63,865 bases of DNA, filler included, from an uncultured Methanosarcinales archaeon (GCA_964472345.1; 4 parts of 4 records of this genome joined end to end with filler, not necessarily neighbours in it); one strand, 5' to 3'; shown: positions 20,046 through 24,993, counted from the first letter of the whole stretch. Made by a program: numbers and translations. Notes: generated by a model from the sequence alone, not told the origin.

Positions 20046-20145
20046 NNNNNNNNNNNNNNNNNNNNNNNNNNNNNNNNNNNNNNNNNNNNTTAATTAATTA
20101 ANNNNNNNNNNNNNNNNNNNNNNNNNNNNNNNNNNNNNNNNNNNN
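20046..20145. other. Artificial contig linker
   Basis: 44 N + TTAATTAATTAA + 44 N. Confidence 0.97.
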
Positions 20146-20197
20146 TTTGCGGTGCAGCAGCTTTCCGCGCTCAGAATTTCAATGCCGCCAAGTTCCA

Positions 20198-20647
20198 TTA
20201 CACCGTCACAAACTCTGTCTTGAGCTGCCTGAACGACACCAGCGACATGATCTTCACCACGCCCTTGCGTGAGATGACGTTCCTGACGAACTGGTAATAG
20301 GCGTCCTGGTCTTTCACGCGCACCTTCAGCACGAGCTCCCAGTCGCCGGTGCAGATGTCAACGCTCTCAATCTGCGGGTGCTTCGCCAATTCACTGCTGA
20401 TGCGCTCAGGATCGCCATACTCGTCCGGCGAGAGGTTGATCAACACAATTACGCAGAAGCCTTCGTCGGTCTTCTTGTAGTCGAAGACAGCTTTGTAGGT
20501 TTTGACGGCTCCTTCTCTCTCAAGTTTCTTGATGTTGTAGTGGATGGTGGTTGCGGGCTCCTTGAGCTTCTTTGCGATGCGCGCGATCTGCGGCGTGCAG
20601 GAGCCTTCCTTGAGCAGCGCGACGAGCCTGGGGCGGATGTCTTTCAT
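20198..20647 (-). CDS. Lrp/AsnC family transcriptional regulator
   Basis: N-terminal HTH (IARIAKKLKEPATTIHYNIKKLEREG); TGDWELVLKV in RAM domain. Confidence 0.92.
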   Translation of the reverse strand: MKDIRPRLVALLKEGSCTPQIARIAKKLKEPATTIHYNIKKLEREGAVKTYKAVFDYKKTDEGFCVIVLINLSPDEYGDPERISSELAKHPQIESVDICTGDWELVLKVRVKDQDAYYQFVRNVISRKGVVKIMSLVSFRQLKTEFVTV

Positions 20648-20788
20648 ATTTTTGTAGATTATTCAATTATTTATAAATTTATCGCTTAATATTCATATAT
20701 TATTCAACAATGTATATTAGAATGCTGCTACTCCGAGCTCATAGATATAAAATGAAAACGAACCTAACGGAGGCTAAAGCACAAAAAC

Positions 20789-21646
20789 GTGCTGGTTGCT
20801 GGTATCACAAGCAAAGAAGATTTAACGAGATTTATCACTCAAGAACCTCTCATCGAGACGCACCATTCATTGGAGGGAATAAGGAATCTTTCTGAAGTCC
20901 GTGCGTTGTACTTCGGCGTTGGCTTGTGCAATGGCCTACCTTTGCTCAGCGCAGGCCTGCCGGTTGATGTCTTGAGTATGCTGCTCGTTAGTGAACAGGT
21001 GCATGTGTCCAAACATATCTTAATTGCGGATACTCATGCAATCACTAATGGTTTTGATACTCACTCTGTCGATCAATTAGCTCGGCAATACCAAGAAACA
21101 CTTCAAAGAATCATAGAAAATCTAGGCTTTTCTGGGTGGCAAGTAGCAAGAGCTTCAGAAATAGATCAAACTCCAGCCTACATGGAACTTCTTAGGGCAA
21201 TAGAAGCGTCTCACGACTACATTAGAAGAGAACTGGCAGATATGCGCTGGTTCAATCGTGAACATGATGTAAATCTCAAAGTAGGCTGGGTTCTCAACGG
21301 TAGTAAGAACTCAGGCGAGAGGTCATTTGACCAAGAATTCCGACGTCAGTTTGACGATCCCTTAGGATTTGTCTATGTAGTGCCCGGCAGAACATTTAAT
21401 CCCAGGAGACTTCACGCTGCCCCATACTTTTGTACAGATCCTGAGGAAAGAATTTTGCTCGAAGCAGGTGAAGATGTAGGTCGTAAACTAGCATTAGCTC
21501 AAGAGAAATTTGGTCGAGAAGCAACCAGGCCATGCGAGAACTTCCTGAGCCAAGTAATGAGGCTATACGACAAAACTGTAGAGAGAACAGAACAAGGACC
21601 TCTCACAGACAGACTGCAACAAGTAATAAACAGGTGTACCAAATGA
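20789..21646 (+). CDS. Class Ic aminoacyl-tRNA synthetase-like (TyrRS/TrpRS/CDPS-like) protein lacking HIGH and KMSKS
   Basis: YFGVG, ILIADTHA, VARASEI, YIRRELADM, KVGW...ERSFD and ILLEAGEDVGRKL are colinear with TyrRS blocks. Confidence 0.55.
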   Translation: MLVAGITSKEDLTRFITQEPLIETHHSLEGIRNLSEVRALYFGVGLCNGLPLLSAGLPVDVLSMLLVSEQVHVSKHILIADTHAITNGFDTHSVDQLARQYQETLQRIIENLGFSGWQVARASEIDQTPAYMELLRAIEASHDYIRRELADMRWFNREHDVNLKVGWVLNGSKNSGERSFDQEFRRQFDDPLGFVYVVPGRTFNPRRLHAAPYFCTDPEERILLEAGEDVGRKLALAQEKFGREATRPCENFLSQVMRLYDKTVERTEQGPLTDRLQQVINRCTK

Positions 21647-22431
21647 AACAAAAAATCTTAGGCGTAATTGGGGGGCTCGGCCCTGAAACGGGCTGCAGGT
21701 TCTGCCTCAACGTGAACAACAAGTTCAAGCTGCAAACGAAGAGACAGCCCCATATTGTCCTTGATAACCTTCCCATTTCTCAGGAAGCAGAAGAACGGCT
21801 GATTCACGGAGGCCCTTCCCAAGAGCATTTTGACCTGCTCGTGGAGTCCGTCCGACGATTAAACAATCTTCATGCGAATCTCATTGTTATTGCTTGTAAT
21901 ACAGTTCACTTGTTCATCGAAGAGCTTAGGAAAATATCGAGGGTACCAATTTTGAGCATAGTAGAGGAAACAGCGAAAAAATGCAAAGAGATGAACATGA
22001 CAACCGTTGGTCTCCTAGGCTCCACGAAAACGATCCAGTCTGGGCTTCATTCAAAAGAGCTGAAACGATTCCGCATTGAGGTCGTTCTTCCCAATAAACA
22101 GGATCAGCGCTTTGTAAGTGAGTGCATTATCAGGATCATTAACCAACAAGTTAAGCGGGATGACAAGAAAAGAATGGTTCAAATCATCGAAAAACTTGAG
22201 AAGGTGGGAGCCGGAGGAATAATTTTAGGATGTACTGATCTCCCATTGCTATTATCAGGTGATGATGCGGGTGTACCAATCATAAACACTATGCGAATAT
22301 TAGAGGATTCTGCGGTGAACCACCTCTCGAACAATGAACAGACAAAAGATTCGCAGCGAATGGTGGCACCGTTAATCATACCGCTGGAGGCAGAGCAGCA
22401 TAAAGATCTATCTCACCCCCATAATATATAA
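21643..22431 (+). CDS. PLP-independent aspartate/glutamate-family amino-acid racemase
   Basis: ILGVIGGLGP, IACNTVH and ILGCTDLP (two catalytic Cys); ATGA overlap with upstream gene. Confidence 0.9.
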   Translation: MKQKILGVIGGLGPETGCRFCLNVNNKFKLQTKRQPHIVLDNLPISQEAEERLIHGGPSQEHFDLLVESVRRLNNLHANLIVIACNTVHLFIEELRKISRVPILSIVEETAKKCKEMNMTTVGLLGSTKTIQSGLHSKELKRFRIEVVLPNKQDQRFVSECIIRIINQQVKRDDKKRMVQIIEKLEKVGAGGIILGCTDLPLLLSGDDAGVPIINTMRILEDSAVNHLSNNEQTKDSQRMVAPLIIPLEAEQHKDLSHPHNI

Positions 22432-22464
22432 ATATGCCCACCATACGACGCTAAAGTAACCACC

Positions 22465-23424
22465 ATGAGCATAACAAAACCCCAATCAAGCGCATTGATC
22501 CCGCAAGAGAAAGCAGCGCAGCAGCCGGCGGGCCTCGTCCTTGACACGCTTCCCATCCTTGCCCTCGACCATCCGGGAGCAAGTGATCCTGAGTACAGGA
22601 AGCGCCGTGATGAAATAGCGAGAGCGGCGCTCGAGTTTCACCTCGGCGATCCCTCGACACGGCAGATTCCGGCCATCCGCTACACTAAAGAAGAGCAGCG
22701 GGTGTGGCGTCATGTTAACGAAAGACTGGAGCCGCTGCACGAGCAATGGGCCTGCTCGCTCTACAAGGAAGGCCGGCGGAGGATTTCCATTCCCGAAGAC
22801 CACATCCCGCAGCTTGCTGACCTGAGCACGCGGCTGGGAGAAATCAACGGCTACCGGTTGGAGCCGATCCATGGGCTTGTGGATCCGCGGGCTTTCCTCA
22901 GCAGGTTGGCGGACAAGGTTATGCTGTCCACTCAGTACATGAGGCACCATTCATGTCCGGAATTCACGCCGGAGCCGGATATCATCCATGAGGTTCTGGG
23001 GCATGTCCCAACATTCACTGATGGAGCTATGGTTAATTTCCAGTTTATGATTGGAAAAGCTGCGCAGACAGCAACGGAGGAAGAGTTCAAATCGCTGAGT
23101 CGGCTGTACTGGTTCACCGTTGAATATGGGTTGATTGAAGAAGGCGATAAGATCAGGGCATTTGGTGCCGGGCTGCTTGGGGGGATTCAGGACTTAACCA
23201 ACGCTATGACCGAGAAGGTTCCCTTACAGAAATTCACAATGGATGAGGTTATCAACACACCTTATGAGTACTCGTTTGGGCAGCCGCGGTTCTTTGTGTT
23301 CCCGTCGCTGGAGTTTTTGCACCGGGAGACGAAGAAGCTGATTGCCGGATTCAGGGCAAATCGTGAGCACTATGACGACTTCGGTGCTCCCCTCGAAACT
23401 TTAAATGGCCGGTACAAGAAATAA
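22465..23424 (+). CDS. phhA: Pterin-dependent aromatic amino-acid hydroxylase (phenylalanine 4-monooxygenase family)
   Basis: DHPGASDPEYRKRR, TQYMRH, PEPDIIHEVLGHVP, YWFTVEYGL (His-His-Glu iron triad), AFGAGLL. Confidence 0.9.
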   Translation: MSITKPQSSALIPQEKAAQQPAGLVLDTLPILALDHPGASDPEYRKRRDEIARAALEFHLGDPSTRQIPAIRYTKEEQRVWRHVNERLEPLHEQWACSLYKEGRRRISIPEDHIPQLADLSTRLGEINGYRLEPIHGLVDPRAFLSRLADKVMLSTQYMRHHSCPEFTPEPDIIHEVLGHVPTFTDGAMVNFQFMIGKAAQTATEEEFKSLSRLYWFTVEYGLIEEGDKIRAFGAGLLGGIQDLTNAMTEKVPLQKFTMDEVINTPYEYSFGQPRFFVFPSLEFLHRETKKLIAGFRANREHYDDFGAPLETLNGRYKK

Positions 23425-23594
23425 AAGCGTGGCTCGTGTCATTTACTTCTTAAACCCCGACACCTTCCGGATCCGATGCAGGGGAAACTGCTGATTTCTA
23501 TGCCGCCAAACAGCAGCGAACAGCAAAGACAAGCCAACGTGCTGGTGCCTGATGCTGCGCCAGCTTTAAATAGCAGCGCGGCCCGCAGGCCGCT

Positions 23595-24470
23595 ATGGCA
23601 ACGATGGATCCTTTGGTTAGATACGGGCGGGAACCTTCATCGGTGAATGGAGCACCTGAGCGGTTCGTGAGGACAACGCATAATGTGCGGGGCTTGGATC
23701 CGGCGATGGTCAGCTCAGTCCTGTCCTCATTTGCCGAAATGGTGGGGAATGGTGATATCGGCACCGATCTGCTGGCGGGAAAAGCATACATCCTTGGGAT
23801 GCAATGCCTTCAAGCGATGAAGCTTTGCGCCGGCAGAAATGGAGATCTCCAGCGCAAGGAAATGGAAATCCACACCAGCCTCGCACAGCTAGCACGGCAT
23901 CTTTTTTACGCAACGAGGCAGGAGCAGTATGCCCACTACTGGTACGAGCACGCGGTTGCGGCAGGGGATGGCGCAAGGCCACGTCGACCGCTCATCGAGG
24001 CGCTCGTTGAGGGTTACCACGCGCACTACCAGTCAGCCCTGAAGCAGGCGAGCTCGGACCCTCCTGGCGCAGCGAAGGACTTCCTGATCGCAGCAGAGAG
24101 AATTGGGCTGCTCGCCCAGCATGAGCCGCCCACGTACGAAGGATTGCACGGACTGCTCTCCCTCCAGTTGGAGTGTTACCGGCGCGGATTGCGTTATTCC
24201 AGCGTTCCCGAAGAGAAGGCCCTTGTTTCGTTGCTGCAGTACGCACGCAAATATCCCGACCTGAGGCCGGCGGTCACCGAAGTGCTTCCTTACTGTCCTG
24301 CCGCGGTCCGGCAGCGGTGGAAACGGGGGGAGCGGCAAAACCAAGCACAGCAGAGGCAGCTCCGTCAGGATACGCTCCAGGGCCTGCTCCGGAGGGAAAG
24401 GACCAAACGCGAACGGCGTGCGCGGGTGAAGGTACGGCACTGGATTCAGCAGAACGTGTGGGGCTCCTGA
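23595..24470 (+). CDS. Hypothetical helical protein
   Basis: 291-aa ORF with TATA (TTTAAATA) about 25 nt upstream. Confidence 0.55.
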   Translation: MATMDPLVRYGREPSSVNGAPERFVRTTHNVRGLDPAMVSSVLSSFAEMVGNGDIGTDLLAGKAYILGMQCLQAMKLCAGRNGDLQRKEMEIHTSLAQLARHLFYATRQEQYAHYWYEHAVAAGDGARPRRPLIEALVEGYHAHYQSALKQASSDPPGAAKDFLIAAERIGLLAQHEPPTYEGLHGLLSLQLECYRRGLRYSSVPEEKALVSLLQYARKYPDLRPAVTEVLPYCPAAVRQRWKRGERQNQAQQRQLRQDTLQGLLRRERTKRERRARVKVRHWIQQNVWGS

Positions 24471-24993
24471 AAAACTCCGTCACCGGCACCTGCCTGATCC
24501 AGTGCGTTGCCCCCCGTTGCAGGAAGCGCGGCAGGAAGATGTTGTTATAGACAAGCAGCACCGCATCGTGCCGCATCTCCTTCAGCAGCTTGTCTTCAAG
24601 GCCATTGTAAAATCCCGTGTCGGGGTTGACGAACAGCATGTCGTAGCGCGAGAAGTCGTGCGCGAAGAAGTCGCCGCAGAGGAGCTTGGCGTTGAGCTTG
24701 AGCCGCCTGCTGATCTCATTGCCCTTGTTCACAAGATCGGCATCAATCTCGATCCCTGCCGCCTCAGTGAACAGCGACGCCACCAGCACGACGCGCCCGT
24801 CGCCGCAGCCGATGTCGAGGAAGCTCTTTGCCCTTTGCAGCCCGATCTTCTGAAACAGCCCAAACACCACGTCAAGGTCGCTCGGGCCCCAGATGCCCTT
24901 CGCGGTGTCGCGGACGACAAAGCGGAAGCTCTCTTTGAGCTCGCGGTCGGAGGCTTGGAAGGCCTGTTTGATGCTGTTGAACCTGGGATCCAT
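24274..24993 (-). CDS. Class I SAM-dependent methyltransferase
   Basis: FLDIGCGDGRVV, GIEID, GDFF, YDMLFVNPD. Confidence 0.85.
   Translation of the reverse strand: MDPRFNSIKQAFQASDRELKESFRFVVRDTAKGIWGPSDLDVVFGLFQKIGLQRAKSFLDIGCGDGRVVLVASLFTEAAGIEIDADLVNKGNEISRRLKLNAKLLCGDFFAHDFSRYDMLFVNPDTGFYNGLEDKLLKEMRHDAVLLVYNNIFLPRFLQRGATHWIRQVPVTEFFRSPTRSAESSAVPSPAHAVRVWSFPSGAGPGAYPDGAASAVLGFAAPPVSTAAGPRQDSKEALR

Follow-up and report, generated by a model that had tools for sequence, protein, structure and literature searches.

A tyrosyl-tRNA synthetase-derived protein family without ATP motifs, linked to an amino-acid racemase and an Lrp-family regulator in archaea

What does a protein do that has the fold of an aminoacyl-tRNA synthetase (aaRS) and has lost the motifs for ATP? 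The question is raised by a four-gene locus in a 63,865-nt stretch of DNA, hereafter the window, from an uncultured Methanosarcinales archaeon (GCA_964472345.1). The gene at issue, here called X (20789-21646, + strand), encodes a pseudo-tyrosyl-tRNA synthetase (pseudo-TyrRS) of 285 aa counted from a GTG start. It is followed by genes for a two-Cys amino-acid racemase and for PhhA, an aromatic amino-acid hydroxylase, and a gene for an Lrp-family regulator diverges from it. An earlier note, made from the nucleotide sequence, had read the four genes as a pathway to a dipeptide or aminoacylated product that contains D-amino acids or a hydroxylated aromatic residue. We find instead that X belongs to an undescribed family derived from TyrRS, whose recurrent gene partners point to tyrosine, its tRNA and D-amino acids. 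The regulator, X and the racemase may form a module for tyrosine and tRNA-Tyr homeostasis.

Fold, lost motifs and retained pocket of X

At E ≤ 0.01, Pfam offered no family for X or for 10 further stand-alone members; neither PF00579 (TyrRS) nor PF16715 (cyclodipeptide synthase, CDPS) matched X. The sole curated model that it touched was the archaeal TyrRS model NF006330, where it scored 18.7 bits and the cut-off is 220. A word-indexed search returned 52 relatives, all of them unnamed or hypothetical proteins, and the organisms named among them were Candidatus Woesearchaeota. With an exhaustive search the family grew to 352 representative clusters (counted at 50% identity) at E ≤ 0.001, or 262 at E ≤ 1e-10, with members also in Patescibacteria. 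A protein atlas gave unnamed clusters only; one cluster labelled as CDPS scored 0.86, under the trust level. In the literature outside subscription journals, we found no paper on the family. The earlier note had thought such a cluster unexpected in a DPANN-like genome, an expectation that does not hold, given that the closest named members are Woesearchaeota and that Patescibacteria have members too.

The structure of X was predicted with AlphaFold2 from 31 sequences (predicted local distance difference test score, pLDDT, 93.5; predicted template-modelling score, pTM, 0.91), and the model was compared with 48,161 chains (VIA). The best match was the TyrRS of A. pernix (2cya_A; Z 20.1, root-mean-square deviation 3.4 Å, 249 residues), which spans model residues 8-285. 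Further TyrRS and TrpRS chains matched at Z 12.8-18.9 (TrpRS at Z 12.9-17.3), and the top 50 Foldseek matches were all TyrRS (E 4.4e-8). For CDPS chains the match was confined to the Rossmann core, with Z 9-12.8 across 138-180 residues (model residues ~19-204); the three helices that lie beyond this part align with TyrRS. Profile comparison gave the same relationship: with hhalign, a profile of 166 X members matched a TyrRS profile of 8 sequences from the window's genome and its relatives at 91.9% probability (E 6.8e-7). The match of the X alignment to one TyrRS sequence was weak (32.9%), and a sequence search of the PDB with this alignment reached yeast TyrRS at E 0.012 only.

Both signature motifs of ATP use are missing. 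In the hhalign alignment, L52-L53-S54-A55 of X stands opposite H-V-G-Y of TyrRS at the HIGH motif, and the family consensus has no His there. The KMSAS of the genome's own TyrRS, its version of KMSKS, aligns with R-L-H-A-A-P-Y-F of X, a segment that includes the invariant P212-Y213. X is not a TyrRS, because HIGH, KMSKS and the curated score are all wanting. Nor did we file it as a CDPS, because it has no match to that profile, its structural match is weaker and partial, and its genomic context is a different one. By its sequence and its model, then, X has the class Ic aaRS fold and lacks the ATP motifs. The earlier note had surmised as much, and the model, the structural match and the profile alignment agree with it.

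The pocket for tyrosine can still be traced. In yeast TyrRS, according to the accessible text of the source (PMC1934993), Tyr43 and Asp177 bind the hydroxyl group of tyrosine, and Tyr170, Gln174 and Gln192 its amino and carbonyl groups. Residues Y41, D151, Y144, E148 and E177 of X pair with these tyrosine-binding residues in hhalign, both Gln positions (yeast Gln174 and Gln192) being Glu in the window's X. Among the 166 members, D151 is kept in 153, Y144 in 165 and E177 in all. A joint MAFFT alignment of X and TyrRS likewise brought the G, ADxH, Y, D and D(Q/E)R columns together. Invariant or nearly so across the same members are G43, G45, P58, Y144, K164, W167, E177, P212, Y213 and R221; D60, D81, D151, D176 and D181 are conserved in at least 92%, and H83 and G200 are likewise listed in the family's own invariant set. 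Such a set marks a selected protein rather than a decaying gene, and it argues for a new and probably catalytic function. Judged from the residues and the model together, X can probably hold a tyrosyl moiety but probably cannot make Tyr-AMP.

Gene partners of X

Loci that carry X were collected from species genomes (14) and from metagenomes (31) and reduced at 97% nucleotide identity to 33 unique loci. Counted by tblastn with the window's racemase, a racemase adjoins X in 21 of the 33; of the other 12, 3 have a contig that breaks off at X. Almost every archaeal locus shows an overlap between the genes for X and the racemase. Orthologues of the window's Lrp regulator, 62-81% identical to it, lie divergently upstream of X in 16 of the 33. 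PhhA adjoins X in none of them, and its model PF00351 was not matched among the 147 neighbouring open reading frames (ORFs) scanned. The gene-neighbourhood analysis that the earlier note had called for therefore recovers a recurrent Lrp-X-racemase arrangement; the recurrent hydroxylase linkage that it had also envisaged is not borne out.

The racemase of the window (21643-22431, +) is a two-Cys member of the Asp/Glu-racemase superfamily, as had been supposed: it exceeds the cut-offs of PF01177 (128.7 bits) and TIGR00035 (173.2 bits; cut-off 93.1), and neither of its catalytic cysteines, C85 and C197, varies among 18 X-linked racemases. Its nearest solved relative is the aspartate racemase 1jfl (E 8.9e-35). 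In the aspartate racemase of Pyrococcus horikoshii, Arg48 and Lys164 are, we assume, the residues that bind the beta-carboxylate; in a phmmer alignment to 1jfl, counted by hand, their equivalents in the window's racemase are Glu and Asn, and aspartate specificity of the linked racemase is doubtful. The protein is ~26 aa longer at its C-terminus (22352-22431) than 17 orthologues and ends 33 nt before PhhA; at this junction of the module with PhhA, the usual racemase stop codon has apparently disappeared.

PhhA (22465-23424, +) belongs to the pterin-dependent aromatic amino-acid hydroxylases (PF00351, 245.7 bits); its score with NF008877, 224.7, is below the cut-off of 247. The translation contains H-E-V-L-G-H and, later, the E of W-F-T-V-E, and we take this His-x4-His pair and this Glu to be the iron ligands. 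A gene for pterin-4a-carbinolamine dehydratase is present elsewhere in the genome. Within a set of 41 genomes made up of the window's own and its relatives, PF00351 occurs in the window's only, and the closest homologues are at most 63% identical. A TATA-like, AT-rich run (~22422-22436, +), read from the sequence and possibly a promoter, lies ~30 nt before the ATG of PhhA. The suspicion that PhhA might be an independent neighbour was sound, given this element of its own and the lack of PF00351 around X elsewhere: PhhA is a lineage-specific neighbour, linked to the module in theme (Phe to Tyr). Its sequence is nearer to the catalytic domains of eukaryote-type hydroxylases (5jk5, 201.9 bits) than to solved bacterial phenylalanine hydroxylases (95-118 bits), and it has ~35 additional N-terminal residues compared with its closest homologues.

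The other contexts of X return to two themes, the first being tyrosine and its tRNA, the second D-amino acids and the deacylation of aminoacyl-tRNA. The first shows in fusions. Among the best 150 representatives, 4 are long fused forms, and 3 of these carry a complete TyrRS that scores above the curated cut-off, with X before TyrRS in P0066 and P0095 and after it in P0073. In P0064, X is fused to a GNAT Acetyltransf_6 domain. A homologue search for longer proteins found no fused forms, a negative of little weight, and the AlphaFold2 model of P0095 is uninformative on packing, with pLDDT <50 in most of the TyrRS half (2 aligned rows). A gene for TyrRS or a class Ic synthetase follows X in 3 of the 33 loci (the L014 group, the L016 group and L069), and a tRNA-Tyr(GTA) gene stands beside X in 4 (the L014 and L016 groups, L070 and L072); the only other tRNA genes beside X are one tRNA-Leu and one tRNA-His. 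In L014 (278-687; Patescibacteria; also L067, L068 and L082), a T-box (RF00230; 98.3 bits, gathering threshold 93) is followed directly by tRNA-Tyr and then by X, a YbaK-like deacylase gene and TyrRS. A UAC codon, for Tyr, aligns where the specifier of the T-box presumably lies; a tRNA gene behind a T-box looks unusual. X also lies between an aminotransferase and a Trp/Tyr permease (L078), and a DAHP synthase is its neighbour in L069.

The second theme appears in L009, where X and the racemase are followed by DTD2, the archaeal D-aminoacyl-tRNA deacylase; in L075, with an HTH-fused racemase, a YbaK-like gene and X; and in L052, where a gene resembling M15 D-Ala-D-Ala dipeptidases separates X from the racemase. 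L070 and L084 pair X with a non-homologous enzyme of the enolase superfamily (MR/MLE). In these two loci (L070, 2539-7115; L084, 85-3785; Patescibacteria), an unannotated gene of ~465 aa lies on the side of X away from MR/MLE. It has a faint GCS2 match in L084 only (E 6.4e-5) and no Pfam match in L070, which also holds a C26/GATase gene and tRNA-Tyr. This is a second, different setting of X, which might be a small peptide pathway. Genes for tailoring oxidases or P450 enzymes were not seen among the 147 neighbours.

Control region, leader and layout of the locus

The Lrp/AsnC regulator, one of the feast/famine regulatory proteins (FFRPs; 20198-20647, - strand), matches the RAM domain PF01037 at 48.6 bits (cut-off 25); Lrp helix-turn-helix models score only below their cut-offs, and it reaches no NCBIfam equivalog. 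The spacer that separates it from X (20648-20788) has 27% GC. Aligned over 10 loci whose X proteins are 57-81% identical, the spacer, together with ~10 nt of coding sequence at each end, has a mean column identity of 74%. The alignment shows repeated ATATTC-type boxes and TATA-like elements, and in the window these lie in a conserved, AT-rich, bidirectional control region (20648-20751). The ATATTC-type boxes, we infer, are sites for the Lrp regulator. A precedent is given in the accessible part of a study of P. horikoshii, in which an FFRP, on sensing a D-amino acid, relieves the repression of a racemase cluster (PMC13628549).

An ATG at 20752 opens a leader ORF (20752-20895, +) in the -1 frame relative to X. 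An ATG-led ORF that overlaps the X start in this frame occurs in 19 unique archaeal loci, the window included; its ATG lies 37 nt before the GTG of X in most of them and 22-55 nt before it in the others. At the junction of leader and X, all 19 have the Tyr codon TAT, preceded by CGG in 11, CTT in 3, TGG in 2 (one of them the window), CCG in 2 and GTT in 1. What is conserved there is thus a codon for Tyr and not one for Trp. In the window, a Trp codon (20800-20802) is followed by TAT (20803-20805), where a +1 shift would lead to ATC (20804-20806) in the frame of X. Three of the 19 loci (L053, L063 and L073) have no ATG, GTG or TTG in the X frame between the last stop codon and the conserved N-terminal helix, and in L063 a stop codon stands three codons past the GTG position. 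The leader ATG is in frame with X in L054/55, in L007/64 (two lineages) and in P0015. The conserved overlap, the TAT codon and the three loci without a start suggest a +1 frameshift at a hungry Tyr codon, and the leader of X is thus a candidate sensor of Tyr-tRNA-Tyr. In the accessible text of a 2021 review (PMC8211752), one -1 case is the only frameshift demonstrated experimentally in an archaeal cellular gene, and archaeal +1 events, in a haloarchaeal virus and in magnesium chelatase, are only suggested.

The layout in the earlier note, an Lrp gene divergent from three co-oriented genes, was confirmed in coordinates and families by ORF and profile checks. The ATGA overlap is real, with the TGA of X at 21644-21646 and the racemase ATG at 21643-21645. 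X and the racemase are also, as described there, AT-richer than what surrounds them, with 44.6% and 44.4% GC against 55.3% in Lrp, 54.3% in PhhA and 58-59% further right. GC at third codon positions (GC3) is 0.385 in X and 0.48 in the racemase, compared with 0.81 in Lrp, 0.64 in PhhA and ~0.76-0.80 in core genes. Logan contigs from 4 runs, which belong to one study and may include the source samples, span the Lrp-X, X-racemase and racemase-PhhA junctions at 100% identity. Since the junctions are bridged in this way, the gene order is not an assembly artefact, and chimeric assembly is ruled out as the cause of the jump in GC3 between Lrp and X. The composition is a mosaic: Lrp has a host-like GC3 and the adjoining X and racemase do not, though Lrp is the module's own orthologue. 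The orthologues that are 62-81% identical to the window's Lrp reside in loci of 31-46% GC.

The window consists of several contigs joined by N spacers, and the genome comprises 1.26 Mb in 120 contigs. Contig C14 forms the left part (1-20045) and is separated by an N spacer (20046-20145) from contig C15, into which the locus starts at 53 nt, so that genuine context exists on the right side only. Because C15 begins just 53 nt before the locus, there is no true left flank, and a 684-aa ORF at the end of C14 (17860-19914, +) is not a neighbour. This ORF has no Pfam or NCBIfam match, lies in a tail of 47-48% GC, is low in GC like X and has no physical linkage to X in the assembly. To the right, a 291-aa ORF without a family (23595-24470, +) overlaps by ~200 nt a convergent ORF (24274-24993, -) that encodes a methyltransferase-like protein of 239 aa (PF13847, 27.4 bits; PF08123 DOT1, 23.7 bits); one of the two ORF calls may be spurious. 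No Rfam family was matched within 20146-24000, and no tRNA gene was found in the window. A scan for sigma-70 promoters stayed at chance level, the sigma-70 model not being applicable to archaea.

Competing readings and known systems

The spread of X over stand-alone, adjacent and fused forms, and its partners that make or remove D-amino acids, lead us to read Lrp-X-racemase as a tyrosine/tRNA-Tyr homeostasis module, in which X would hold a tyrosyl group without ATP activation and work with the racemase. We give this reading an even chance of being correct. The racemase would most likely turn D-tyrosine, or a related D-amino acid, into the L-form that the cell can use. The target of X would be tyrosine or the tyrosyl end of tRNA-Tyr. 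The step that we favour is the removal or exclusion of D-Tyr from tRNA-Tyr, which would make X a trans-editing factor for TyrRS; alternatively, X could partner TyrRS. To our knowledge, TyrRS is usually said to lack an editing domain of its own, and translation has its classic chirality problem in mischarging with D-Tyr. Through the dedicated Lrp, the operon would be switched by amino acids, and translation of X may be confined to times when charged tRNA-Tyr runs low, through the +1 shift at the leader's Tyr codon. PhhA, which would turn Phe into Tyr and is placed beside the module in the window's genome, would serve the same end. The most specific version of this proposal strikes us as unlikely. 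In it, X is a TyrRS-derived D-Tyr-tRNA-Tyr trans-editor or a rescuer of charging, the racemase turns D-Tyr into L-Tyr, and in DPANN archaea the system is gated by frameshifting at low charged tRNA-Tyr, as a counterpart of the Tyr T-box of Patescibacteria.

Several observations weigh against the homeostasis module as just described. On the side of the leader, an in-frame GTG, ATG or TTG is available to X in 16 of the 19 loci, among them the window, where GGAGG also lies 13 nt upstream of the X GTG; with such a start and such a sequence, plain initiation at GTG is possible. On the side of the ligand, pocket position 41 is variable (Y in 89, F in 49, M in 10 and W in 10 of the 166 members) and position 148 is divided between E (111) and Q (55); some clades may therefore have a ligand other than tyrosine. 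In the window's X, moreover, residue 176 is Gly instead of the Asp found in 158 of 166 members, and the protein is acidic (pI 5.8), which gives no argument for RNA binding; the family spans pI 5.4-10.1 and is uninformative in this respect. The closest solved relative of the racemase is an aspartate racemase, and action of the window's enzyme on tyrosine is a proposal of ours. The module is also rare: X was not found in 40 relatives of the window's genome, bar a 24-bit match that is probably a TyrRS, and it occurs in 3 of 301 Patescibacteria sampled. The distribution of the known deacylases adds to this. DTD2 or DTD1 is present in 7 of 15 X-bearing genomes, and DTD2 is absent throughout the family to which the window's genome belongs (0/8 relatives, counting the unpublished, 69% complete genome G008, or 0/7 when it is set aside), in which only the window's genome has X. 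DTD2 is found in 25 of the 40 relatives that lack X. X as a simple replacement of DTD1 or DTD2 was considered and rejected, as no phyletic complementarity is seen.

The alternative that survives best treats X as an inert pseudo-enzyme, a tyrosine-sensing or scaffolding subunit that tunes TyrRS or the racemase and does no tRNA chemistry. It would account for the fusions to a complete TyrRS in both orders, the loss of both ATP motifs and the gene overlap between X and the racemase, seen in almost every archaeal locus; one structural match of the X model, moreover, is the double-length TyrRS of Leishmania (3p0h_A, Z 17.1). We regard it as a real if lesser possibility, since the invariant polar residues of X that are foreign to TyrRS (D60, K164, W167, E177 in place of Gln, D181, Y213 and R221) look like a new active site and not like a relic. 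The TyrRS gene of the window's genome, moreover, is on contig C8 and not beside the stand-alone X.

Distinctly improbable, in our judgement, is a CDPS-like X that would turn aminoacyl-tRNA into a dipeptide or aminoacylated product, with residues supplied or tailored by the racemase and perhaps PhhA. We take the Ser nucleophile of CDPSs, in a register assumed and not computed, to fall opposite G45 of X, an invariant Gly; the nearby position 47 is C in 104, S in 20, T in 13 and A in 13 of the 166 members. The accessible text on AlbC gives Ser37, Asn40, Tyr178, Glu182 and Tyr202 as its catalytic residues, and has CDPSs hold the aminoacyl amino group by Tyr178 and Glu182 (PMC7731078). X does carry a Y-x3-E pair (Y144/E148), has no ATP motifs and resembles CDPS structures in its Rossmann core (Z 9-12.8). 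Its context could also be turned this way: the P0064 fusion with GNAT Acetyltransf_6, the position of X between the ~465-aa gene and MR/MLE in L070 and L084, with C26/GATase following in L070, and an adjoining TyrRS or tRNA-Tyr that could supply the substrate. Against this, PF16715 is not matched, and TyrRS matches X far better and over its full length, including the C-terminal helices that CDPSs do not have. The cyclodipeptide or other peptide product put forward at the outset consequently loses its support: the recurrent partners of X are TyrRS, tRNA-Tyr, a T-box and deacylases, not tailoring enzymes such as an oxidase or P450, and linkage to a tRNA-Tyr-sensing T-box and aminoacyl-tRNA deacylases fits the upkeep of translation. 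That the grouping is incidental, a recently transferred, AT-rich X-racemase cassette now without function beside unrelated Lrp and PhhA genes, is highly improbable: the GC3 of X and racemase beside ~0.8 in host genes, the cassette's absence from 40 relatives, the rare G176 and the lost racemase stop would suit it, but neither ORF is broken and every other invariant residue is in place, Lrp is the module's own orthologue under a conserved control region, and the arrangement recurs in 21 of 33 loci.

A sizeable, unannotated family here copies TyrRS, keeps the tyrosine pocket and drops the use of ATP. Its contexts, with two unrelated kinds of racemase, point to an undescribed management of tyrosine chirality or supply, among organisms whose genomes are minimal and which live on amino acids that they scavenge. 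Should the leader function in the proposed way, archaea would have in it a natural +1 frameshift that senses an amino acid.

Parts of the proposal have counterparts in known systems. Tyr T-box leaders and the +1 sensors of prfB and yeast Ty3 tie expression to tRNA charging or to a slow A-site codon, as proposed here for X; unlike classic slippery sites, the X site is mostly CGG-TAT-C, except for CTT-TAT in 3 loci. BAR of P. horikoshii, a racemase of broad specificity, depends on pyridoxal phosphate, whereas the two-Cys racemase here is cofactor-free. The accessible account of the DARP-BAR-transporter cluster has an Lrp-family regulator beside the racemase and the use of D-amino acids, as at our locus, but no TyrRS-like partner (PMC13628549).

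The trans-editing factors (DTD1/DTD2, YbaK/ProX and AlaX) resemble X in being stand-alone, adjacent or fused to the cognate synthetase, a pattern typical of such factors, and X shares operons with YbaK-like and DTD2 genes. Their folds are unrelated to that of X, however, which does not substitute phyletically for DTD and for which an editing role is a proposal. In the double-length TyrRS of kinetoplastids (L. major, 3p0h), an active and a degenerate unit, the dead half, share one chain, as in P0066, P0073 and P0095; X differs as a distinct, widely stand-alone family with invariants of its own, coupled to a racemase in archaea.

With the archaeal and eukaryal TyrRS (2cya; yeast, 2dlc), X shares the whole fold, CP1 and the first C-terminal helices, together with the ADxHA strand motif, the tyrosine-binding Tyr/Asp pair and the Tyr-x3-Gln/Glu and D(Q/E)R positions. 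In contrast to them, it lacks HIGH and KMSKS, has Glu for Gln at two ligand positions, is shorter (285 aa) and has a new invariant set (P58, D60, K164, W167, D181, P212-Y213 and R221). With the CDPSs (AlbC, YvmC and Rv2275), it has in common a Rossmann core derived from class Ic synthetases, free of the ATP motifs, and the Tyr-x3-Glu pair; unlike them, it has no PF16715 match and no evident Ser nucleophile, keeps the C-terminal helices and lies among translation genes. The X family would thus be a second, independent case, beside the CDPSs, of a class Ic synthetase recycled to another use.

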